Below are positions 1,277 to 33,570 of a DNA stretch of 38,873 nucleotides, in pieces; the first letter of the stretch is position 1, and every line of letters begins with the position of its first letter. The translations under genes and the position numbers were made by a program. Origin of the DNA: a virus (Duplodnaviria > Heunggongvirae > Uroviricota > Caudoviricetes); the IMG/VR virus record IMGVR_UViG_2734482567_000007; one strand, 5' to 3'. The notes beneath the pieces are model-generated. The model searched no databases. It saw only the letters and a program-made list of their open reading frames with translations, and was not told where the DNA came from.

Positions 1277-3364
1277 ATGTTTGCTTCAGTTAAAGAACTG
1301 GTTGGATTACCGGGGATGCCGGGAACGGAGCAAGGCGTTCGCTATTCAATCAGGAAGTATGCAACCAGCGAAACCAGCAGACGCCGCAAGAAAGGCGCTA
1401 AAGGTTTTGAATACAGCATTGACTGTTTACCTGAAGTGACACAGCAGGCATTACGCGAACGTTATGCCCTGCAACTGATGACGCAAAAAGCCGATGAATC
1501 ACCGGCTCCGGTGGTGACAAAGGCCAGACGCTCGTCTGCCGTGGTTGATGCGGTGGAGGCATATCGCGGATCACCACAACTGATGGTCGAACGCCTCAAT
1601 GCCCTGACTGAAAACCAGCGCCAGGTGGCAGACGCACGCATTGCGATCGTCAGTGAGGTGCTGAAATTCACGCAACAACCCGGTTTCAGCTGCGCTAAAG
1701 CTATCCGGTTCCTCGTTAACAGCCTGGCACGATCACAACTGGACGAGCGCATTGTGGCAATGGTTGAGACGGCGAACGCCAAAAAGGGAAACAGCCGCGC
1801 GTTGAGTGAAATCACGCTGAAACGCTGGATTGCGGCCTTTAACAAGGCACAGAACGCCGCTGAACGCCTGCTTTTACTGGCACCGGGTAAACGCCAGGAA
1901 ATAAAAGCCGAAGATATTAACTGGCTGCCCGAATTTCTGGCGCAGTATCGCCAGTCAAACGGCCGACCAATGACCGAGGCTTACGAGGATTTTGTTGCTG
2001 AATGGCAGCACCGGCACGCTGATGAGCCTTATATGCTCGATATCATGCCCTCTTATGACACCATTCGCCGCGCAATGAAGAAACTGCCGGAAGTGGTGAA
2101 ACAAAAAGGCCGGGTAACTGGCAGTGAATACCGTCAGCTTGAGGGATTCACGCGCCGCGACTGGTCCAGAATGCCGGTGAATTATGTCTGGATTGGTGAC
2201 GGTCACGGCATGAAGCTGAAATGCGCGCACCCGGTTCACGGGCGGCCATTCGCACCGGAAGTGACCTTTGTTATCGACGGTGGCACGCGCTTTGTGGTGG
2301 GCTGGAGCCTTGACCTGGCTGAAAATGTTTTCGCCGTAGCCGGTGCCATACAGCACGGTATTCGCCATCATGGCAAACCGTTTCTGTATTACTCGGATAA
2401 TGGCTCCGGGGAAACCGCCGACGTCCTGGATAAGGAGATTGTGGGGATACTGCCACGACTGGGGATTAATCACCCGACAGGGATTGCCGGTAATCCGCAG
2501 GGACGGGGCATTATCGAACGGCTTAACCGCACATTACCGATGCGCATAGCCCGTAAATACCGCACCTATTTCGGGAAAGGAGCAGATCGCGAGACGTTAC
2601 GTAAAACCAACCGCGATTTACGCTCGGCATTCAGTGCCCTGCAACAGGGCAAACGGCTGAACGCCCGGCAGCAGTCAGCGATGCGTGATTTACCGTCCTG
2701 GTCTGAACTGATTGATGCCATTCGTGACGGTGTTGAGTGGTACAACAACCGGCCGCACGATGAATTACCCATGAAGCCGAACGGTAAACATTACAGCCCG
2801 GCGGAGTTCAGAAAAAAACGCCTGGCGGAAGAGGACACGGAAATTGAATGGCTGTCCGATGTTGAACTGCGGGATATGTTCCGGCCGATGGTGGAGCGCC
2901 CTGTAAGACGCTGTGAAATACGCTGGCTGAATAATATTTACTACGCGCCCGAGCTGCGTGACGAGCATGGCCGTAAGGTACTTATCAGCTATGACATTCA
3001 TGATGCCGAACGAATTACCGTGCGCCGCCCGGATGGCAGCGTGATTTGCGAGGCGGTATGGGACGGCAATAAACGCGAAGCCTTCCCTGTCAGCGCGGAA
3101 TACTACAAACAGCAGCAGCGCCTTAAAGGCATGCGTAAACGCGCAGAGGAAAAAATCCGTGATGCCGAGGATGAGGTTGTCAACGTGCTGGAGCACAAGC
3201 CGCAGGAGCCCTGGCTGGAAAACATATACCGCCCTGTGGGTAATACGGTGACCGTTCAGCAACCGGTCGCTGACGATGAACCTGATGAAGAATACGAGCG
3301 TAATTTCCAGCGGGGATTGCAACTGCTCGAAGCGAAATTAAAAGAAAGTGATCCGCTGGCCTGA
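1277..3364 (+). CDS. A: Mu-type DDE transposase (MuA homologue)
   Basis: 695 aa; position after ner; WIGDGHGMK and downstream acidic residues consistent with DDE core; size close to MuA. Confidence 0.85.
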   Translation: MFASVKELVGLPGMPGTEQGVRYSIRKYATSETSRRRKKGAKGFEYSIDCLPEVTQQALRERYALQLMTQKADESPAPVVTKARRSSAVVDAVEAYRGSPQLMVERLNALTENQRQVADARIAIVSEVLKFTQQPGFSCAKAIRFLVNSLARSQLDERIVAMVETANAKKGNSRALSEITLKRWIAAFNKAQNAAERLLLLAPGKRQEIKAEDINWLPEFLAQYRQSNGRPMTEAYEDFVAEWQHRHADEPYMLDIMPSYDTIRRAMKKLPEVVKQKGRVTGSEYRQLEGFTRRDWSRMPVNYVWIGDGHGMKLKCAHPVHGRPFAPEVTFVIDGGTRFVVGWSLDLAENVFAVAGAIQHGIRHHGKPFLYYSDNGSGETADVLDKEIVGILPRLGINHPTGIAGNPQGRGIIERLNRTLPMRIARKYRTYFGKGADRETLRKTNRDLRSAFSALQQGKRLNARQQSAMRDLPSWSELIDAIRDGVEWYNNRPHDELPMKPNGKHYSPAEFRKKRLAEEDTEIEWLSDVELRDMFRPMVERPVRRCEIRWLNNIYYAPELRDEHGRKVLISYDIHDAERITVRRPDGSVICEAVWDGNKREAFPVSAEYYKQQQRLKGMRKRAEEKIRDAEDEVVNVLEHKPQEPWLENIYRPVGNTVTVQQPVADDEPDEEYERNFQRGLQLLEAKLKESDPLA

Positions 3365-3437: not shown

Positions 3438-4379
3438 GTGAATAATATGACCGATATTAACGATGTAATCAAGACCATTGATGAACTTATTGATGGCGGC
3501 GTACTGACGCAGTATGCCATCGCCAGAGAGGCGGGAATTTCCGACGGCACATTATCGGCTTTCCGTAAGGGAAAATATAAAGGCGATAACGCTGCTGTGG
3601 CTGCTTCCCTGCGCTCCTGGTATGAGAACTGGAATAAACAAAGCGCACTGCCGGAACCGCCGCAGTTTGTGGAAACTCAGACAGTCCAGGAGCTGCGCGC
3701 ACTGTTTCAGGCGGTTCGCCTGATGGGCTGTATTAACGTTATTGTGGGCGTACCGGGTGTGGGTAAAACGGCCACTGCCCGTAATTACTGCCAGGAGCAA
3801 CCAAACACCTGGATGATCACCCTGTCACCCGCGCACTCCAGCGTCACGGAGTGTCTGCTGGAGCTGGCCGATGCGCTGGGGATTGATTACACCCGCGCGA
3901 ACAAAGGGGCATTATCCCGCGCCATCCGCCGTCGCCTGATGGGAACGCGTGGACTGGTGATTGTGGATGAGGCGGATCATCTTGGTATTGACGGTCTGGA
4001 GCAACTCCGGGCAATTCAGGACGCCACGGGGATCGGGATGGTGCTTATTGGTAACCCGCGCGGATTGTTTAAAGGTGGACGCCGCGCCTTTGATGATTTA
4101 TCGCGCCTGTTCAGCCGTCTTGCCCGTACAAAACAACTTCGCAAGGCCAAAAAGGCGGATGTGCTGGCCATTGCCATGGCGTGGGGGATCAGTGGTGAGG
4201 CCGAGCTGGCCGTCATGCAGGCTATCGCTGAAAAGCCGGGAGCGTTACGCGTTCTGACACATACGCTTAACCAGGCGTGGCTCACCGCCAGCGGTGAAGG
4301 CGCGGCGCTGACAGAAAAACATATTAATGCGGCCTTTAAAGAGGTTTATACCAACCCTGAATTACTCTCACAGGTGTGA
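3438..4379 (+). CDS. B: Transposition ATPase (MuB homologue, AAA+)
   Basis: 313 aa; Walker A GVPGVGKT, Walker B VIVDEAD; directly downstream of A. Confidence 0.85.
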   Translation: MNNMTDINDVIKTIDELIDGGVLTQYAIAREAGISDGTLSAFRKGKYKGDNAAVAASLRSWYENWNKQSALPEPPQFVETQTVQELRALFQAVRLMGCINVIVGVPGVGKTATARNYCQEQPNTWMITLSPAHSSVTECLLELADALGIDYTRANKGALSRAIRRRLMGTRGLVIVDEADHLGIDGLEQLRAIQDATGIGMVLIGNPRGLFKGGRRAFDDLSRLFSRLARTKQLRKAKKADVLAIAMAWGISGEAELAVMQAIAEKPGALRVLTHTLNQAWLTASGEGAALTEKHINAAFKEVYTNPELLSQV

Positions 4380-9055: not shown

Positions 9056-9568
9056 ATGAATCGCGCTTCCCTGATTACCTTAATACATGTCGCAAAACGC
9101 GATCTACAGCTTGACCATGATACCTATACATCCGCGCTGCTGGCAGCCACCGGCAAATCCAGTTGCCGTGATATGTCACCCGGTGAGTTATCCCGCGTGC
9201 TGGATGTTTTCAAAAAACGCGGTTTTAAAGTGCGTCAGAAGCCGGTTAACCGGGCCTTAAAACCGGGTACGGTGACCGCCAAAATTCGCGCCATCTGGAA
9301 AGTGATGCACCGGCAGGGATTTATCTCTGATGGCGGGGAAACGGCCCTTAACCGCTGGGTGAAATCGCAGACGGCCGCGCAGAACGACGGCGAAGGTGTG
9401 GCTAACTGGCAGTGGCTGGAGCAACAACCCGCGCTGGCCTCTGATGTGCTGGAGCGTCTCAAACGCTGGCACCGCCGCAAAATGCTGGCAGCCCTGGATA
9501 TGTCGGAACGTGCAGTGATGAGTTATGAGCGTGTTTGCAGGCTGTATGAAAAATCATTCCCCCGTTAA
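9056..9568 (+). CDS. gemA: GemA-like early regulatory protein (Mu gp16 family)
   Basis: 170 aa; position immediately before early terminator and activator gene as in Mu; sequence character matches GemA family. Confidence 0.6.
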   Translation: MNRASLITLIHVAKRDLQLDHDTYTSALLAATGKSSCRDMSPGELSRVLDVFKKRGFKVRQKPVNRALKPGTVTAKIRAIWKVMHRQGFISDGGETALNRWVKSQTAAQNDGEGVANWQWLEQQPALASDVLERLKRWHRRKMLAALDMSERAVMSYERVCRLYEKSFPR

Positions 9569-9572
9569 CCCC

Positions 9573-9604
9573 AAATCCCGCCACAGCGCGGGATTTTTAT
9601 TTTA
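9573..9604 (+). terminator. Intrinsic terminator at end of early operon
   Basis: AAATCCCGC-CACAGC-GCGGGATTT hairpin followed by TTATTTT, 5 bp after gemA stop. Confidence 0.7.
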
Positions 9605-9638
9605 AACTTGCCCTGTGTAATGATGACCGGAGGCGGGT

Positions 9639-10061
9639 ATGGCTGAAACACAGATGAGCATGTTTGGTGACAGCGAACAGCTGCACGCGCTGATTGACCG
9701 TCTGGATGATATTCCTGATGATGAGCTGAAAAAGAACTGGCCCGGCACGCTGCGGGACCTGGTTGATGTGATCAGTGCTGAACTGCACCGTCAGGGGATT
9801 GAACCTGCTCAGGCGGGAATGCTTGCCCGTAAGGTTGCAGCCGCACAGGCCGGGTACATGGGCGGGCGTGGTTATTATCTCCCGGTCGGTGAATCCCTTT
9901 TCACCGAACTGCGCAATAATGAAATTTTTTCCCGCTGGAGCCAGGGCGAAAAAATTGAAACCCTGCGCCGCCACTACCAGATGTCAGAGACGCAGATTTA
10001 CTCCGTTATCCGCAACCAGCGTCGCCTGCATCAGGAACGCACGCAGCCACGGCTTTTCTGA
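9639..10061 (+). CDS. Mor/C-family transcriptional activator (middle/late gene activator)
   Basis: 140 aa; GGAGG RBS; position between early terminator and lysis genes; C-terminal HTH-like region typical of Mor/C family. Confidence 0.65.
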   Translation: MAETQMSMFGDSEQLHALIDRLDDIPDDELKKNWPGTLRDLVDVISAELHRQGIEPAQAGMLARKVAAAQAGYMGGRGYYLPVGESLFTELRNNEIFSRWSQGEKIETLRRHYQMSETQIYSVIRNQRRLHQERTQPRLF

Positions 10062-10132
10062 TATTCCGCAAATCCTGCCCCCTTTTCCTCACGGTTACGC
10101 TGACTCAGAGAACACCATGAGACAGCGTAACA

Positions 10133-10633
10133 ATGCCAAAACTCCCCGCACCCCTGCGTAAAAAGCTGATTGCCCTTGTTCTGGCCGGAGCCGGGACGTT
10201 CACCATTGCCACGCACTACACCGGCTACTGGGAAGGGAAAGAAAACACCACGTACATTGATCCCACCGGCACCCCCACCATCTGTTACGGCCATACCGGC
10301 CCGGATGTGAAACCGGGGATGACAAAAACTGATGAAGAGTGTCTGGAGCTGCTGGAAAAGGACATGAAATGGGCCTTTGCGGCTATCGATCGTCATGTTC
10401 AGGTGCCGCTTACCCGTGGTCAGACGGTGGCGCTGGCCTCCTGGATTTTCTGGGCCGGTGAAACGAACTTTCGCAACTCCACGCTCCTGCGCCTTATCAA
10501 TGCCGGGCAGATGCCCGCGTCCTGTAAGCAGTATATCCGCTGGATTTATTCAAAGGGGGTAAAACTCCCCGGTCTTGAGGCCCGCCGTTCGGCGGATGAA
10601 TGGTTATGTCGTTACGATTTGCCGAAAGTCTGA
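10133..10633 (+). CDS. lys: SAR endolysin (T4-type lysozyme fold)
   Basis: 166 aa; N-terminal Gly/Ala-rich weakly hydrophobic segment (LIALVLAGAGTFTIAT) then E-x8-D-x5-T catalytic spacing (WEGKENTTYIDPTGTPT). Confidence 0.75.
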   Translation: MPKLPAPLRKKLIALVLAGAGTFTIATHYTGYWEGKENTTYIDPTGTPTICYGHTGPDVKPGMTKTDEECLELLEKDMKWAFAAIDRHVQVPLTRGQTVALASWIFWAGETNFRNSTLLRLINAGQMPASCKQYIRWIYSKGVKLPGLEARRSADEWLCRYDLPKV

Positions 10634-12954: not shown

Positions 12955-14618
12955 TGAACAAAGCCAGAGAAACGTCGCCTTCACTGATGCAAATGACGCC
13001 TCCCCGCAAAATTGATCTGTCAGGTGAAAAAGCCCTGCTGGGCGTGGATGTGCCGGACAGCCTTGATTTGCCCGGTGATATGCCGGTGTTTCTGGATTAT
13101 CAGGCCCGCTGGTTTGCAGATGAAAGTCAGGTCTGCATCGCGGAGAAATCCCGCCGCACCGGTCTTACCTGGGCGGAAGCCGGGCGTAACGTCATTACTG
13201 CTGCAAAACCGAAGCGTCGTGGTGGCCGCAATGTGTTTTATGTGGGATCAAAGCAGGAGATGGCGCTGGAATATATTTCTGCCTGCGCGCTGTTCTCCCG
13301 TGCCTTTAACCAGCTGGCAGATGCTGATGTGTATGAGCAGACATTCTGGGATCGGGATAAAAAAGAAGAAATTTTGACCTACATGATCCGCTTTCCGAAC
13401 AGTGGATTCAAAATTCAGGCATTGTCTTCCCGTCCGTCAAACCTGCGCGGCCTTCAGGGGGATGTGGTGATTGATGAAGCCGCGTTCCACGAGTCACTGG
13501 ATGAGCTTCTCAAGGCGGCAATGGCGCTCACTATGTGGGGCGCGCGCGTGCGTATTATCTCCACGCATAACGGCGTCGATAATCTGTTTAATCAGTACAT
13601 TCAGGAAGCCCGCGAGGGGCGCAAGGATTACAGCGTCCACCGCATAACCCTGGATGATGCCATTGCGGACGGGCTGTACCGTCGTATCTGTTACGTCACC
13701 GATCAGGAATGGTCACCGGAAAGCGAGCAGAAATGGCGTGATGATCTCTACAAAAACGCCCCGACCCGTGAGGATGCCGACGAGGAATACGGCTGTATCC
13801 CGAAAAAATCCGGCGGTGCCTATATCCCCCACGCGCTTATTGAAATGGCGATGATCCGCGACATCCCGATTCTGACGTTTGAAGCCCCGGACAACTTCAT
13901 CAGCCGTGCCGCATGGCTGCGTGAATCGGAAGTTTTAACCTGGTGTGAAGAACATTTAAAACCGCTTTTAGAGAAATTAAATCCCCGTTCCCGCTTCAGC
14001 TTCGGGGAAGACTTTGCCCGCACCGGTGACCTGTCCTGCTTTGTGCTGCTGGAAATCACCGAATCCCTGGCAAAGCGCGAGGTGTTTCGCGTGGAGCTGC
14101 GCAACCTGCCGTATGCCCAGCAGGAACAGGTGATGATGTACATCCTGACCCGCGTTCCGGCGCTGGTCGGTGCGGCGTTCGACGCCACCGGTAACGGCGG
14201 CTATCTGGCAGAGGCCGCACTGCTGGCCTTTGGCCCGGACATCATCGACTGCGTGATGTTGTCGCCGAAGTGGTACGGCGAGTGGATGCCAAAACTGAAA
14301 GCCGAGTTTGAAGATCAGAATATCCTCGTCGCCCGCCATCAGACCACGCTTGATGATTTGCGCCATGTGAAGGTAGTGAATGGTATCCCGCAAATCGACA
14401 AGGGGCGCACGAAGGACCAGAACGCAACGGCTGCGAACGCCCGCCGCCATGGTGATTTTGCCGTGGCGCTCTGTATGGCAAACCGGGCGTCATACATGGA
14501 GGGCTTCATCCTGGATGAATCAGCCTGTCAGGCGCTACAGGAGCGGTCGCGGGCAATGGAGGGCGGTTATCGTGATGACGATGAGGCATATCATGAATTT
14601 GATCGGGGGGGCTGGTAG
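12951..14618 (+). CDS. Terminase large subunit (Mu gp28-like)
   Basis: 555 aa; position; VVIDEAAF Walker-B-like motif and C-terminal nuclease-like region. Confidence 0.75.
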   Translation: MMNKARETSPSLMQMTPPRKIDLSGEKALLGVDVPDSLDLPGDMPVFLDYQARWFADESQVCIAEKSRRTGLTWAEAGRNVITAAKPKRRGGRNVFYVGSKQEMALEYISACALFSRAFNQLADADVYEQTFWDRDKKEEILTYMIRFPNSGFKIQALSSRPSNLRGLQGDVVIDEAAFHESLDELLKAAMALTMWGARVRIISTHNGVDNLFNQYIQEAREGRKDYSVHRITLDDAIADGLYRRICYVTDQEWSPESEQKWRDDLYKNAPTREDADEEYGCIPKKSGGAYIPHALIEMAMIRDIPILTFEAPDNFISRAAWLRESEVLTWCEEHLKPLLEKLNPRSRFSFGEDFARTGDLSCFVLLEITESLAKREVFRVELRNLPYAQQEQVMMYILTRVPALVGAAFDATGNGGYLAEAALLAFGPDIIDCVMLSPKWYGEWMPKLKAEFEDQNILVARHQTTLDDLRHVKVVNGIPQIDKGRTKDQNATAANARRHGDFAVALCMANRASYMEGFILDESACQALQERSRAMEGGYRDDDEAYHEFDRGGW

Positions 14619-16207
14619 TGGGACGCATCATTGATACTGACGGAAAACCTTTCTCCTTTGACCCGGAGATGCAGAGTGCCGCGCTGGATATTCCGCAGAT
14701 TGCCAGCCGTTATATTGAACATCCGGCTTCGGGTATCACCCCGAACCGGGCGGCGCAGTGCCTTCGCGGGGCTGAACGTGGCGATCTGATTGCCCAGTCC
14801 GATCTGGCCGCTGATATTGAAGAAAAGGACACCCACCTTTTTGCGGAGCTGGGCAAGCGACGTCTTGCCATTCAGGGGGTGCCATGGAGTATTGAGCCGC
14901 CACCGAACGCCAGCGCGAATGAGAAAAAGGACGCGGAAATGCTCGACGAATATCTGCATTCCGCAGACTGGTTTGATGCCATGCTGTTTGACGCCACGGA
15001 TGCCATCCTGAAGGGCTATTCCTGCATGGAAATTGAGCACGGGATGCTCGGTAAAATGCACATCATCCGCGCCATCCGCTGGCGTGACAGCGGGCATTTC
15101 TGCCTTAACCCGGATGATTTGAGCGAACTGCGGCTGCGTGACGGCAGCCATGCCGGGGTGGCGTTTCAGCCCTTTGGCTGGATAGTGCATCAGTCGCGTT
15201 CACGCACCGGCTACGGTGGTGCGACGGGGCTTGTCAGAACGCTTATCTGGCCGTTCATTTTCAAAAACTATTCCGTGCGCGATCTGGCGGAATTTCTGGA
15301 GGTGTACGGCCTGCCAATGAAGGTCGGGAAATACCCGTCCGGGGCAACACCGGAGCAGAAAAGTGCCCTGATGCGGGCGGTGATGGATATCGGGCGACGT
15401 ACAGGCGGGATCATCCCGGCCGGGATGTCGCTGGAGTTTCAGGCGGCAGCGAACGGTCAGGCCGATCCGTTTGAAACCATGATTTCGTGGGGTGAGCGTT
15501 CCATCTCCAAAGCAATACTCGGCGGCACGCTGACCACAGAAGCCGGAGACAAAGGCGCGCGCTCGCTGGGTGAGGTGCATAACGAGGTGCGCCGGGAAAT
15601 CAGGGATTCTGATTTACGCCAGCTGGCTGCAACCCTGAACCGCGATCTGGTGTATCCGCTGTATGCCCTGAACACCGCCCACGCCATTGATATCCGTCGC
15701 CTGCCGCGTATCTGTTTCCAGACCAAAGAACCGGGGGATATCACCAAAATAGCCAGTGCGGTGATGCAACTCAGTGCGGGGATGGATATTCCTGATCCCT
15801 GGGTACGGGATCAGACCGGTATTCCACAGCCCACGCCCGGTGAAGCCATATTCCGTGTCCGTCAGAGCAGTAATGAACCGGCCATGCCTGACAGGGAAAC
15901 GCTACCGGAAAAACAGGAAAAGACAGAACAGACGGCGCTTTCAGCCCGACTGCCGGAAGCGAAAAACACGCCGCGTGATGAACTGGACGACATGGGGGAC
16001 GCGGTGCCTGCCCGCCGCTTACAGGAGGCCATCGATCCGGTGCTGGAGCCGGTCATTGATGTCATCAGAACGCGGGGGCTGGCGGAGGCACTGGCAGACC
16101 TGCCTGCCCTTTACCGTGAAATGGATGATTCCCGCCTGATGACGCTGCTCAGTGATGCCATGTTTGCTGCGGAAATGAAGGGGATGCTGGATGGCTCAGG
16201 GGATTGA
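14618..16207 (+). CDS. Portal protein (Mu gp29-like)
   Basis: 529 aa; position after terminase; size and composition typical of Mu-like portal. Confidence 0.75.
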   Translation: MGRIIDTDGKPFSFDPEMQSAALDIPQIASRYIEHPASGITPNRAAQCLRGAERGDLIAQSDLAADIEEKDTHLFAELGKRRLAIQGVPWSIEPPPNASANEKKDAEMLDEYLHSADWFDAMLFDATDAILKGYSCMEIEHGMLGKMHIIRAIRWRDSGHFCLNPDDLSELRLRDGSHAGVAFQPFGWIVHQSRSRTGYGGATGLVRTLIWPFIFKNYSVRDLAEFLEVYGLPMKVGKYPSGATPEQKSALMRAVMDIGRRTGGIIPAGMSLEFQAAANGQADPFETMISWGERSISKAILGGTLTTEAGDKGARSLGEVHNEVRREIRDSDLRQLAATLNRDLVYPLYALNTAHAIDIRRLPRICFQTKEPGDITKIASAVMQLSAGMDIPDPWVRDQTGIPQPTPGEAIFRVRQSSNEPAMPDRETLPEKQEKTEQTALSARLPEAKNTPRDELDDMGDAVPARRLQEAIDPVLEPVIDVIRTRGLAEALADLPALYREMDDSRLMTLLSDAMFAAEMKGMLDGSGD

Positions 16208-17522
16208 TTTAGGTTATGCCGCCACGCTTCCCTCAAAAGAGACGGTGGCATACTTCCGCGCCAAAGGGGCGCATATCAGCTGGAACTGGTTCGAAACAGA
16301 CGCGGATGTTCATGCCCGCTCATTCACGGCAGCAAAAACGGCACGGCTGGATGTGGTAACCACATTACAGGCCGAAGTGCAGCGGGCCATTGATGAGGGG
16401 ATTTCACAGAAAGAATTTATCCGCACACTGACGCCACGCCTGCAAAAGCTGGGATGGTGGGGAAAGCAGATTGTGGTGGACAGCGACGGTAACGCGGAAG
16501 AAGTGCAGCAGGGCAGTCCCCGTCGTCTGGCGCTGATTTACAACGTGAACACCCGTGTGGCTTACAATGCCGGGCGTTACACGCAGATGATGAACAACAC
16601 GGACACGCATCCGTTCTGGCAGTATGTGGCGGTCATGGACAGCCGTACCCGCCCGTCGCATTCCGCCCTTAACGGTCTGGTATTCCGCTATGACGATCCG
16701 TTCTGGAAAACACACTACCCGCCCAATGGCTGGAACTGCCGCTGCCGTGTGCGGCCATTGTCTCAGGCCCGTCTGGATGCAATGGGGTTATCCGTTTCAT
16801 CCGGTGAGGATCATCTCTCCACCCGCAATGTTGAGGCTGGCGTGGATAAACAGACCGGAGAAGTCAGAGAAATGCCGGTGACCACATATTCAGATGGCGC
16901 CAGAACCATGACACCGGATGTGGGCTGGTCATATAACCCCGGCTCGGCAGCGTTCGGCACAGACCAGGCGCTGATCCGCAAACTGATCGAGGTGAAAAGC
17001 CCGGCGTTACGGGAAATGGTGGTTCAGGAGATGAACAACAGCCCGGAGCGGCAGCTGGCGTTCCGCATCTGGGCAAAAAACATCATGCAGACCCGGCGAG
17101 GTGGTAACGATATCCGCACGCTGGGCTTTATGACTGAAAGCATTGCGCAGGCAGTGGAAAGCCGGACGGGAACGCCACCGGCCCGCCTGCTGGCGATGAG
17201 CGGTAAAAATGTGCTCCATGCGGACAGTGTGAAACATCAGAATGACGGCATCGCTCTGACGCCGGAGGACTTCGGGCGCTTACCGGCAATGCTGGCAAGG
17301 CCAAAAGCGGTACTGTGGGACAAACGGCACAACAATCTGATGTATATCGTGGAAAATCAGGATGGCAGTGTGCAGATTGCCGTTAATGCACCGTACAGTC
17401 TGAAACGTCAGCCCGACAAACTGGATGTGATTGTGAATGCTTACCGGGTTATCAATATGGATAAGCTGAAATCGGATATCCGGGGCGGAATGCTTGAGGT
17501 GCTGGAAGGACAAATTGATTAA
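16191..17522 (+). CDS. Head morphogenesis protein (Mu F-like)
   Basis: 443 aa; motif DSRTRPSHSALNGLVF...NGWNCRCRV typical of F-family minor head proteins. Confidence 0.75.
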   Translation: MAQGIDLGYAATLPSKETVAYFRAKGAHISWNWFETDADVHARSFTAAKTARLDVVTTLQAEVQRAIDEGISQKEFIRTLTPRLQKLGWWGKQIVVDSDGNAEEVQQGSPRRLALIYNVNTRVAYNAGRYTQMMNNTDTHPFWQYVAVMDSRTRPSHSALNGLVFRYDDPFWKTHYPPNGWNCRCRVRPLSQARLDAMGLSVSSGEDHLSTRNVEAGVDKQTGEVREMPVTTYSDGARTMTPDVGWSYNPGSAAFGTDQALIRKLIEVKSPALREMVVQEMNNSPERQLAFRIWAKNIMQTRRGGNDIRTLGFMTESIAQAVESRTGTPPARLLAMSGKNVLHADSVKHQNDGIALTPEDFGRLPAMLARPKAVLWDKRHNNLMYIVENQDGSVQIAVNAPYSLKRQPDKLDVIVNAYRVINMDKLKSDIRGGMLEVLEGQID

Positions 17523-17607
17523 CGGTCAGTGGCGGGGGTCGAACCCGCATACATGATCCACCCGGAGGCAGGCACCGACTTTACCAGTTAAGCGTACACT
17601 GACCGCC
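17523..17607 (-). other. Structured tRNA-like element (T-arm plus acceptor-like stem), not a canonical tRNA
   Basis: Minus strand shows GTCAGTG...CACTGAC 7-8 bp terminal helix enclosing GCGGG-TTCGACC-CCCGC T-arm-like hairpin; no acceptable anticodon arm found. Confidence 0.3.
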
Positions 17608-17643
17608 TGTTTATTTTATATTCATCCTTTATGCGGAGGCAAT

Positions 17644-18117
17644 ATGTCATCCATTGATGCAGCTGTCGTTGTTGACGTTACGCGTCTCCAGCGAGTGTTT
17701 GCCCGGCTTCAGTTTGTGGGCGGCGGAAAAGACCTGGCCCGCAGTGTGGCGGCGAGTCTTCTGTCATCGTCAGAAATGGCGTTTGAGCAGGAAAAAGAGC
17801 CGGATGGTGAACGCTGGCATGACTGGTCAGATCCTTACCGTGAGTGGCGTACCCGTAAGGGATACACGCCCGGCAAAATCCTGACGCTGAACGGCGATCT
17901 GGCCCGCCGCCTGACCACGGATTATGGCGATACCTGGGCGCTGATTGGATCAAATGAACCTTATGCAGCCATTCATCAGTGGGGTGGCCTGCCTGGTATG
18001 CCACCGGGACCGGCGGCCATTGGCGCACGTCCGTATATGGGCTTTGATCAGGTGGCAGAACAGGAGATCATGGACGAAATCAGAAAACGCTTTAAAAAGG
18101 CCACAGAAACGCCGTAA
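17644..18117 (+). CDS. Virion morphogenesis protein (Mu G-like)
   Basis: 157 aa; GGAGG RBS; position between F and I as in Mu. Confidence 0.6.
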   Translation: MSSIDAAVVVDVTRLQRVFARLQFVGGGKDLARSVAASLLSSSEMAFEQEKEPDGERWHDWSDPYREWRTRKGYTPGKILTLNGDLARRLTTDYGDTWALIGSNEPYAAIHQWGGLPGMPPGPAAIGARPYMGFDQVAEQEIMDEIRKRFKKATETP

Positions 18118-18294
18118 TGGTTTAAGGTATGCAAACGTATTACCTTACCCCCTTCAGGCGCGTGTCGTGATTTTCTAACCTGTATTTAACGGGCTTTAAA
18201 ATCTGCGTGAAGCGCCTTTCTCATTCCCCCCCTGTCAGCACTTTCTGAAGTCCCGCAAAACCAGCCCCAAAAATACCCGGCTTATGCTGCCGGT
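18118..18294 (+). promoter_or_regulatory. G-I intergenic region: candidate late promoter and, by synteny, candidate centrally located strong gyrase site
   Basis: 177-bp noncoding region at the genome centre between G and I homologues; contains CCCCC/CCCCCCC runs also seen upstream of the endolysin gene. Confidence 0.35.
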
Positions 18295-19428
18295 ATGAAG
18301 ACAGAAAATCACCCAAAAGACGCAAATCGCCCCTCCGGTTTAGCCGTGCTTTCAGCTTCGCTGACTGCATCCGGCGACGGATGGTGTCAGTTACTGCCAG
18401 CCGGTCGGGTAAAGGCCCGTGACGGTCGCCCGGAAAAACCGACTGAAGGCTGGCTGATTAACGAATCCGCCTGTAACCGGATGAAAGCCGGGCTTTCCGC
18501 CCTGCATCAGCCGTTACTGATTGATTATGACCATCACTCCGTGAATGCGCAGAAAAACGGATTCAAGGCTATTGCTGCAGGATGGGTTAAGCCGGAAAAC
18601 ATCGAATGGCGTGAGGGTCAGGGGATTTTCATTAAACCTGAATGGACACCACAGGCACAAAAACATATTGATGACCGTGAATATGCCTATCTGTCTGCAT
18701 ATATGCATTATTTCGCTGACACCGGGGAACCCTACCTGTTGCGCATGGCTTCCCTGACGAATGATCCGGGTATTACGGGTATGAACCCTGTCGCGGCACT
18801 CAGTGCTGATGATCTCTATGTCGTTTCCCCTTCTCAGGAGCAATCCCCCATGAATGAGCAATTACGCCAGTTGCTGACGGCGCTCGGTCTGACCGTGGCT
18901 GACGGTGACGAATTTACACCGGAACTGGGCACGGCGGCGCTGTCTGCCCTTACCGGGATCAAAACCCGTGCGGATGCGCACGACACCCTGAAAACGCAGG
19001 TTGCCAGCCTGTCGGCAGAACTGGAAACCGCAAAAGGCACACCAACTGGCGGCACTATTGATCTGACGAAATATGTGCCCGTTGAGACGTATAACGCCCT
19101 GCGTACCGAATATGCCGCGCTGTCGGCACAACACGGCAGCACCACGCTGGAGCAGTTGCTGGATAAGGCCGAGTCCGAAGGACGCATTTTCAAAAGCGAA
19201 CGCGGATACATGGAAGGACTCGGACAACAGATTGGCGTCGCGGCACTTTCTGCACAGCTTGACGCCCGCCAGCCGGTTGCGGCTCTGACCACTCTTCAGA
19301 CCGACACCGTAACCGTGCCGGATAAAAAGACCGCCACCGCTGTGCTGTCGGCTGAAGATATCGCCGCCGCACGTCTGTTGGGTAAAACCGAAGCCGAGTT
19401 CCTGAAAATGAAAGAGGAAATGCAATAA
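18295..19428 (+). CDS. Head maturation protease/scaffold (Mu I-like)
   Basis: 377 aa; position before major head protein; Ala/Leu-rich coiled C-terminal half typical of scaffold domain. Confidence 0.7.
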   Translation: MKTENHPKDANRPSGLAVLSASLTASGDGWCQLLPAGRVKARDGRPEKPTEGWLINESACNRMKAGLSALHQPLLIDYDHHSVNAQKNGFKAIAAGWVKPENIEWREGQGIFIKPEWTPQAQKHIDDREYAYLSAYMHYFADTGEPYLLRMASLTNDPGITGMNPVAALSADDLYVVSPSQEQSPMNEQLRQLLTALGLTVADGDEFTPELGTAALSALTGIKTRADAHDTLKTQVASLSAELETAKGTPTGGTIDLTKYVPVETYNALRTEYAALSAQHGSTTLEQLLDKAESEGRIFKSERGYMEGLGQQIGVAALSAQLDARQPVAALTTLQTDTVTVPDKKTATAVLSAEDIAAARLLGKTEAEFLKMKEEMQ

Positions 19429-20375
19429 TGCCTACCCCGATTACACCGGCGATGATCACCGCCCTGATGACGGGCTACCGTTCTGATTTTCAGGCCGGGA
19501 TGTCCATGGCTCCGTCGCAGTACCAGAAAATTGCGATGACCGTGCCGTCCACCTCGAAATCCAACACCTACGGCTGGCTGGGGCAGTTCCCGCAGTTCCG
19601 TGAGTGGATCGGCTCCCGCGTCATCGAGAAGATGAAAGCCTATGGCTACGCCATCGTGAACAAAACCTTTGAAGGCACCGTTGCCATTAGCCGCGATGAC
19701 TTTGAAGACGACAATCTCGGCATCTACTCCCCGTTATTCCAGGAAATGGGTCGTGCCGCTGCGGCACAACCGGATGAACTGGTCTTTGCTGCACTGCGTG
19801 ATGGTCTGAATGCGGCCTGCTATGACGGCCAGAACTTCTTTGATACCGAACACCCTGTTTACCCCAAAGTGGATGGCTCCGGTGATGCACAGATGGTCAG
19901 CAATATGTTTGTGGCAAAAACCGGCTCTGTCGGTGCACAGGCGGATTACAGCGGCCCGGCCTGGTATCTGCTTGACTGCTCCCGCGCGGTAAAACCGCTG
20001 ATTTATCAGGATCGCCGCAAAGCCGAACTGGTTGCCCAGACAAAAGTCGATGAAGGCCGTGCGTTTACTGATAACGAGTTTGTGTTCGGTGCTTCCGCCC
20101 GTCGCAATGTGGGCTACGGCTTCTGGCAGATGGCCTACATGATGCAGTCACCGCTGACGCTGGATGCGCTGTGGCACGGCTGGTCAGCCATGCGTGACTT
20201 TAAGGCTGACGGTGGCCGCAAACTCGGCATCAAACCCACCCATATTGTTGTCCCCACCTCGCTGGAAAAACAGGCGGTGCAGCTGCTGGAGCGCGAGCTG
20301 TTCGCAGACGGTAACGCCACAGTCTCTAACGAGATGAAGGGCAAGCTGGAGCTGGTTGTCGCGGATTATCTGTAA
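19428..20375 (+). CDS. Major head subunit (Mu T-like)
   Basis: 315 aa; position and size; ATGA overlap with I stop. Confidence 0.75.
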   Translation: MPTPITPAMITALMTGYRSDFQAGMSMAPSQYQKIAMTVPSTSKSNTYGWLGQFPQFREWIGSRVIEKMKAYGYAIVNKTFEGTVAISRDDFEDDNLGIYSPLFQEMGRAAAAQPDELVFAALRDGLNAACYDGQNFFDTEHPVYPKVDGSGDAQMVSNMFVAKTGSVGAQADYSGPAWYLLDCSRAVKPLIYQDRRKAELVAQTKVDEGRAFTDNEFVFGASARRNVGYGFWQMAYMMQSPLTLDALWHGWSAMRDFKADGGRKLGIKPTHIVVPTSLEKQAVQLLERELFADGNATVSNEMKGKLELVVADYL

Positions 20376-32153: not shown

Positions 32154-32403
32154 NNNNNNNNNNNNNNNNNNNNNNNNNNNNNNNNNNNNNNNNNNNNNNN
32201 NNNNNNNNNNNNNNNNNNNNNNNNNNNNNNNNNNNNNNNNNNNNNNNNNNNNNNNNNNNNNNNNNNNNNNNNNNNNNNNNNNNNNNNNNNNNNNNNNNNN
32301 NNNNNNNNNNNNNNNNNNNNNNNNNNNNNNNNNNNNNNNNNNNNNNNNNNNNNNNNNNNNNNNNNNNNNNNNNNNNNNNNNNNNNNNNNNNNNNNNNNNN
32401 NNN
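32154..32403. other. Assembly gap (250 N)
   Basis: Uninterrupted run of N. Confidence 0.99.
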
Positions 32404-33430: not shown

Positions 33431-33570
33431 GGCCGCATAACCTCCTGCTTTGTTGTTGATATCTTTATCACTCAATCGATCGACAAAAACGATCGATTTG
33501 ATTTATTTAATTGATACAACAAATAACACGAAATGTCATTAGCGAAAATTTATGAGTTTGATCACTAATT
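33431..33570 (-). promoter_or_regulatory. com-mom upstream regulatory region with clustered GATC sites
   Basis: GATC at 33478-33481 and 33491-33494, each within a CGATCG palindrome, and a third at 33560-33563, in an AT-rich region upstream of com. Confidence 0.45.

Follow-up and report, generated by a model that had tools for sequence, protein, structure and literature searches.

The non-coding interval between the G and I genes of the phage analysed here probably comprises two adjacent cis elements, a strong gyrase site and the late promoter of I, both inherited from the common ancestor of Mu and phages of the Sp18 type. Sequence homology, positions, conservation and motif statistics were established directly and are laid out below. 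The window, by which we mean the whole stretch of 38,873 nucleotides that was analysed, is an Sp18-type Mu-like transposable prophage of E. coli (Table 1). Around the G-I gap it shares 87.8% identity with prophage Sp18 of strain Sakai (E. coli O157:H7), and a prophage of E. coli JE86-ST05 matches it at 100% identity. Relatives of the prophage were found in 228 of 5426 complete E. coli genomes (about 4%), many of these being Shiga-toxin producers. The G-I region gave no nucleotide-level match to Mu itself; the proteins of the flanking genes G and I are 53% and 50% identical, respectively, to their Mu counterparts.

As the initial annotation had stated, the gap extends over exactly 177 non-coding bases (18118-18294), from the stop codon of G (18117) to the start codon of I (18295). 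The homology of both flanking genes is supported by Pfam. With the left end of the phage placed near position 67, the gap lies about 18.07 kb into the approximately 38.7-kb phage (47%); the Mu gyrase site is at 17.88 of 36.7 kb (49%). The location is thus that of a Mu-type central gyrase site, namely in the G-I gap and near the middle of the genome. An Rfam scan of the gap returned no RNA family.

Several features of the window outside the gap are recorded here in their own right. The left end of the phage is preceded by about 66 bp of flanking DNA that is not phage (window 1-70), and the end itself reads TATAACCAGGTGAATC where Sp18 has TGTAACCAGGTGAATC, a difference that would alter the terminal TG usual at Mu-type ends. 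A run of 250 N is found at 32154-32403, within the tail-fibre gene, and the DNA to its right is inverted relative to Sp18. The inverted part includes mom (33471-32539), a 684-aa DUF6645/SASA gene, the invertase (37477-36905) and a tail-fibre assembly gene (38460-37939), and the window terminates inside tail-fibre DNA with no phage end. A scaffold join or a rearrangement at an invertible segment could be the cause. The F-G gap (17523-17643) contains an antisense tRNA-like element (17524-17603, minus strand) that scores 31 bits with the Rfam tRNA model (gathering score 29; E 2.7e-4) and is annotated by NCBI as 'tRNA-OTHER' at its position in three relatives; ARAGORN found no tRNA in the window.

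Table 1. Features of the window discussed in the text (window coordinates)
Feature	Position	Strand	Sequence or basis
Transposase A	1277-3364		
Transposase B	3438-4379		
GemA	9056-9568		
Mor/C-family activator gene, presumed activator	9639-10061	+	Pfam Mor 6.7e-31
lys late promoter (predicted)	element 10055-10081; -10 10096-10101	+	-10 TACGCT
Endolysin (lys)	10133-10633		
F	16191-17522		
G-like virion morphogenesis gene	17644-18117	+	Pfam Phage_tail_S 1.2e-33
Putative strong gyrase site	18070-18220		130-bp footprint of gyrase about 18133, prolonged until the family-invariant block ends
Predicted 4-bp staggered gyrase cleavage site	18133-18136		GGTATGC^AAAC^GTATTACC
Long imperfect hairpin, possible weak terminator of the lys-G transcript	18157-18215	+	RNA fold
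Conserved block	18159-18192		CGCGTGTCGTGATTTTCTAACCTGTATTTAACGG; match to distal right arm of Mu SGS
Variable T/C-rich spacer with C7 run	18221-18241		sole poorly conserved gap stretch in 16 family variants
Upstream element of I late promoter, presumed C-like activator site	18242-18268	+	TTTCTGAAGTCCCGCAAAACCAGCCCC
Predicted -10 hexamer of I promoter	18283-18288	+	TATGCT; 41 bp from element start; family-conserved
I-like protease/scaffold gene	18295-19428	+	Pfam Mu-like_Pro 8.3e-89
T	19428-20375		
Third, core-only copy of the element	36900-36881; -10 36860-36855	-	TTTTTGAATTTCCGCAAAAC; exact core match 36896-36883; -10 TATTCT

The putative gyrase site in the left part of the gap

Alignment to the strong gyrase site of Mu (SGS) reveals a single well-aligned stretch between the two gaps, the block 18159-18192, in which 27 of the 34 bases are identical to Mu 17901-17934. 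The best ungapped segment (18166-18192) begins 48 nt past the G stop codon, the same offset as in Mu, and its score was reached by none of 1000 dinucleotide shuffles. The non-coding bases flanking this island are only 17-23% identical to Mu, and the conservation of the island itself is on par with the better parts of the coding sequence. An island of this kind amid unalignable flanks argues for selection on just the essential part of the Mu site. The three distal AT tracts (about +32 to +64) keep the same register in window and Mu, and the last approximately 50 bp of G would make up the left arm of the site. For Mu, a published account states that taking away the SGS right arm abolishes the preferential activity of gyrase, and taking away the left arm does not (PMC13284261, citing Oram et al. 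2006). The Mu record annotates, within a G-I gap of 196 bp, a gyrase cut (17879/17880), a terminator known by prediction (17908-17953) and the late promoter PI (17977-18043).

For scoring of the gap against the generic gyrase motif, simple matching to the published 133-bp consensus was dropped, as it placed the Mu SGS control below the genome mean. The matrix used is an approximate symmetric linear model, fitted to the published coordinates and scores of 606 sites (W3110 positions 1-275000). Its coordinate register was confirmed by the base frequencies, with G making up 71% at position 0 and C making up 72% at +3. Alternative fits (forward-only, maximum-of-strands EM, shifted reverse strand, wider windows, L1) did not recover the exact matrix (Sutormin et al. 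2018, Table DS10), and the symmetric approximation was therefore kept. It reproduces the published scores with a cross-validated r of 0.86-0.87 (rmse 1.5) and under-predicts the published controls, giving 10.1 for the Mu fragment (published, 14.3) and 25.6 for the consensus (published, 36.8); the scrambled control obtains 3.0 (published, 2.5). In the Mu genome the SGS ranks third by the approximate matrix (score 9.7, z ~3.5) with position 0 at 17876, which shows the annotated 17879/17880 to be the cut in the other strand.

Within the gap the best position is 18133 (score 6.3, z 2.2, rank 391 of 38,744 by the approximate matrix), and agreement with the generic E. coli gyrase motif is moderate. 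The equivalent base of Sp18 has the same approximate-matrix score. A MAFFT alignment pairs 18133 of the window with Mu 17876, that is, with the cleavage position indicated by the approximate matrix and the published 133-bp fragment, and the staggered cut is predicted on that basis (Table 1). For its AT periodicity of 10-11 bp, the right arm ranks within the top 0.8% of the window; the Mu right arm, set against the Mu genome, ranks within the top 0.03%. The proximal T6A4 tract is absent from the window. Elsewhere in the window, the strongest AT periodicity of 10-11 bp is located at about 9211-9300, inside gemA, where it exceeds that of the gyrase-site arm; the maximum is found likewise at the equivalent Sp18 position.

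Over 18145-18220 the window and Sp18 are identical, and this stretch hardly varies among 16 distinct family variants, in which the identity of the I proteins falls as low as 72%. Within the Sp18 family, G is as conserved as the gyrase block, so that family conservation alone says little about the block; what counts is the experimental test of the Sp18 site. In 2004, Oram and Pato reportedly tested five prophage sites, all of which are said to have been cleaved by gyrase and only one of which, that from the E. coli prophage, is said to have markedly enhanced replication. A review describes the site of the Sakai O157:H7 Mu-like prophage Sp18 as the only foreign site able to replace that of Mu for Mu replication (PMC10052514). 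By its sequence, the gyrase site of the window would be an allele of this one, known from Sp18. The earlier proposal of a strong gyrase site in the gap thus gains substance from homology with the Mu site and from near-identity with the experimentally tested site of Sp18.

More distant relatives were sought by a protein-guided scan of genome contigs, which yielded two loci only. The Apirhabdus prophage has a Mu-like G-I gap, and the prophage of Edwardsiella has other DNA upstream of I. In the latter (Edwardsiella anguillarum, 780-1200), the 420 bp that precede I have a high AT content and contain an apparent minus-strand ORF in the place of G; the conserved gyrase-site block is absent upstream of I, and extra DNA seems to have been inserted there.

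The moderate motif score lends itself to a different reading, according to which the gap is a promoter region only and its similarity to Mu is residual ancestry, without present gyrase function. A generic matrix score no higher than the top 1% would be consistent with that, as would the loss of the proximal AT tract of Mu. Several central sites of Mu-like prophages reportedly failed to support Mu replication in the 2004 work of Oram and Pato. The review supports the failure of other prophage central sites in general terms, yet the sole exception it reports is the very Sakai site with which the window is identical over 18145-18220 (PMC10052514). The conserved island between unalignable flanks also speaks against mere ancestry, and we regard a gap lacking present gyrase function as improbable.

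Transcript structure provides another perspective on the same bases. On the plus strand, RNA from 18157-18215 folds into a long hairpin with outer stem GGCGC/GCGCC and inner stem GUGAUUUU/AAAAUC, followed by CUUUCUCAUU, and the whole-gap RNA fold has a z-score of -2.0. The conserved block could therefore be mainly a terminator or 3'-end stabilising hairpin of the late transcript from lys to G, with its likeness to a gyrase site being secondary. The homologous stretch of Mu is annotated as a terminator predicted by TransTermHP, the outer and inner stems are both kept in Mu and the window despite differing sequences of the 3' arm, and a promoter immediately downstream suits an operon boundary. 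The U tract is poor, however, a scan for consensus terminators found none on the plus strand at the gap, the fold z-score is modest, and the most conserved bases (TATTTAACGG) are in the loop and inner stem, outside any GC-rich terminator stem. Moreover, a terminator role is compatible with gyrase binding, and the same bases in Mu belong to the right arm, which has been proven essential (PMC13284261). As the principal function of the block, a terminator is possible but rather unlikely; it is plausible that the lys-G transcript ends in a weak terminator, able to coexist with the gyrase site. On the minus strand, the inverted repeat at 18277-18293 followed by GTATTTTTGG was called terminator-like for leftward transcription.

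The predicted late promoter of I and its upstream element

Immediately to the right of the variable spacer, the segment 18242-18288 is recognised from its sequence as the putative I late promoter of this phage family. The sequences upstream of I and lys can be aligned without gaps over 50 bp and read TTTCTGAAGTCCCGCAAAACCAGCCCC-N14-TATGCT for I and TTTCTGATATTCCGCAAATCCTGCCCC-N14-TACGCT for lys, with a spacing of 41 bp from the element start to TAYGCT in both. The 27-nt element pattern has two matches in the window (10055 and 18242) against 0.00 expected, and the copy at 18242-18268 is conserved in the family. In the Edwardsiella prophage, whose I protein is 62% identical, a related G.AAA.CCA.CC occurs at the same distance from the I ATG. 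The plus strand has no canonical sigma-70 promoter of the -35/-10 type between 17600 and 18500, and a -10 without a -35 is the arrangement found in Mor/C-type promoters. When TATGCT is taken as the -10, the shared element covers about -53 to -27 with respect to the predicted start and so overlaps the -35 region, and the centre of its imperfect dyad (TTTnnG...CnnAAA) falls at -43.5 to -44.5, if the start is 18294-18295. The C protein of Mu binds a dyad centred at -43.5 in promoters devoid of a -35 hexamer (PMC2582627). The late promoter suggested by the initial annotation thus appears well founded in the element common to the lys upstream region and in its identical spacing to the -10. The shared element precedes lys and I, and a weight-matrix search found no copy of it ahead of the tail/baseplate genes or com/mom, a difference from the set of four C-dependent promoters in Mu. 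Upstream of com/mom (33470-33560, minus strand) there is a cluster of GATC (AATCGATCGTTTTTGTCGATCGATTG), as at the mom promoter of Mu.

Further definition of the element comes from its core. The 14-nt core TGAWNTYCCGCAAA has three exact matches and one near match in the window against 0.31 expected, and each of the three exact copies lies a short way upstream of where a gene or operon begins. The third of them is located directly after the invertase stop codon, approximately 80 bp ahead of the 684-aa gene and 40 bp from TATTCT; Sp18 has CTTTACTGAATTAACGCAAAATGG at this position. Sp18 retains the element at all three places, and from its substitutions the conserved recognition core is predicted to be CTGAWnTnnCGCAAAA, which contains no C run. 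A one-mismatch core at position 14381, inside the terminase gene and without a -10 hexamer, was rejected as a promoter copy. The 684-aa gene behind the third copy encodes a sialate-O-acetylesterase-like domain together with DUF6645. A late-promoter core in front of this gene suggests its late expression, similar to a virion or lysis-associated function.

The C runs of the gap (CCCCC, 18148-18152; CCCCCCC, 18226-18232) had been compared earlier to the run upstream of the endolysin gene, as possible binding sites of the late activator. Both runs are there, but the supposed likeness is misplaced, with the lys run GCCCCC (10077-10082) aligning to a third and shorter run, GCCCC at 18264-18268. These latter two are C runs inside the shared element, and they represent what can be said for C runs as activator sites in the window. 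The runs at 18148-18152 and 18226-18232 are both outside the element. The C5 run lies within the gyrase site, is without an equivalent at lys and in some relatives is CCCTC instead. The C7 run varies freely, its position being occupied in relatives by TTTTTCCCC, TTTTCCC, TCCCCCCC or C9. In Sp18 even the lys run has become GCCGCC, and the third copy of the element is entirely without a C run. Taken together, the variable C7, the altered lys run and the C-free third copy show that the C runs are not the signal, and their function as activator binding sites is considered highly improbable.

The presumed activator of the promoter is encoded at 9639-10061, by the only Mor/C-family gene identified among those ORFs of the window that were scanned. 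The protein is 40% identical to Mu C and 28% identical to Mu Mor, and the phage therefore carries a Mor/C-family activator of its own. With only one gene of the family identified, a separate middle stage may be absent. Just after gemA, window 9569-9638 contains a hairpin and T run (AAATCCCGC-cacag-GCGGGATTTTTATTTT) and then about 40 bp to the activator gene, a layout like that of the Mu middle promoter, which overlaps a terminator. The four late promoters of Mu have CCATAACCCC at a fixed distance from the -10 and share ATAAC/CCCC, likewise at a constant position. The promoter of the window lacks CCATAACCCC, the Mu C box. Since the element differs from the C box, the promoter appears to work like a C-dependent promoter in its layout, but to have no target for Mu C. 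The I late promoter is probably driven by the phage's own C-like activator via a recognition sequence other than that of Mu.

Predicted transcription start, proposed mechanism and significance

The start codon of I is secure, for the homologues from Mu, Apirhabdus and Edwardsiella share the N-terminus MKT.., and no Shine-Dalgarno sequence is present before the I ATG. The -10 hexamer TATGCT is placed in the loop of an inverted repeat, CCGGC-TTATGCT-GCCGG (18277-18293), that ends one base before the ATG. From this arrangement we infer that transcription of I would start at the ATG, with the message being leaderless or nearly so. A transcription start at the I ATG would be unusual. The Edwardsiella prophage has the same layout in other bases (CCCCC-TGACAAT-GGGGG-A-ATG), whereas Mu and Apirhabdus have a longer hairpin before I and the Mu leader is about 26 nt.

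The mechanism proposed for the gap involves gyrase action, activator binding and a transcription start as its three inferred components. Host DNA gyrase would bind 18070-18220, centred near 18133, and the right arm with its phased AT tracts (18166-18205) would be wrapped around a GyrA C-terminal domain, enabling processive supercoiling. A plectonemic loop might thus be extruded with the gyrase site at its apex, as proposed for Mu, and the loop would bring together the two prophage ends, which lie at about 18-20 kb from the site on either side, so that the transpososome can assemble and replicative transposition take place. At the adjacent promoter, a dimer of the C-like activator (9639-10061) would bind 18242-18268 at the core dyad TTTcTGA...TCCGCAAA, centred near -44, and assist sigma-70 RNA polymerase in using the -10 TATGCT without a -35 hexamer. 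The promoter would serve I as well as the downstream head and tail genes, with transcription starting at the I start codon or no more than one or two bases from it. The I promoter is only about 100 bp from the gyrase site. It is conceivable, if speculative and on balance doubtful, that Sp18-type phages use a leaderless head-gene message and that firing of the late promoter is coupled to supercoiling at the gyrase site, thereby linking replication to late expression.

The Mu site is the reference substrate for studies of gyrase mechanism, and only one natural substitute has been reported to work. The window provides a natural variant of that working substitute, having an identical distal right arm, AAAC as compared to AAAT as its predicted cleavage tetranucleotide and a different spacer, and so lets one ask which bases of a gyrase site matter. 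In CTGAWnTnnCGCAAAA the study offers a testable recognition sequence for the single C-like activator of the prophage family. Gyrase site and promoter extend known Mu biology to a relative, and current understanding is unchanged by them.

Comparison with known systems

Regarding the generic gyrase motif of 130 bp (Sutormin et al. 2018), the best match of the gap is the position homologous to the Mu cleavage site; the difference is that the match is moderate, and was scored with a fitted approximation of the published matrix. The Sp18 site shares with that of the window the phage family, the sequence of 18145-18220, the layout and nearly the gap length (177 bp in the window, 176 bp in Sp18). It is different in the substitutions at 18136 and 18138 beside the predicted cleavage (AAACGT in the window, AAATGC in Sp18), in two substitutions carried at the G end and in the T/C spacer, which reads CTCATTCCCCCCC in the window and GTATTTTTCCCC in Sp18.

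Compared to the Mu SGS, the core and the proximal right arm of the window site are not alignable, the proximal T6A4 tract of Mu being replaced by CCTTACCCCCTTCAGG, which contains the C5 run. The AT periodicity is weaker, the generic gyrase-matrix score is lower and the overall identity of the gaps is low. Both sites nonetheless occupy the G-I gap at the genome centre, have a homologous distal right arm with phased AT tracts, and are followed by the I late promoter.

With respect to the C-dependent promoters of Mu, the window element (TTTCTGAnnTyCCGCAAA) is different from the Mu box CCATAACCCC, three copies were found in the window as compared to four in Mu, with none before com/mom, and the I transcript would have essentially no leader, as opposed to about 26 nt in Mu. 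The architecture, by contrast, is the same in both phages. It involves a -10 without a -35, an element at about -53 to -27 with an imperfect dyad near -44, and the placement of one copy right after the activator gene before lys and of another in the G-I gap before I.
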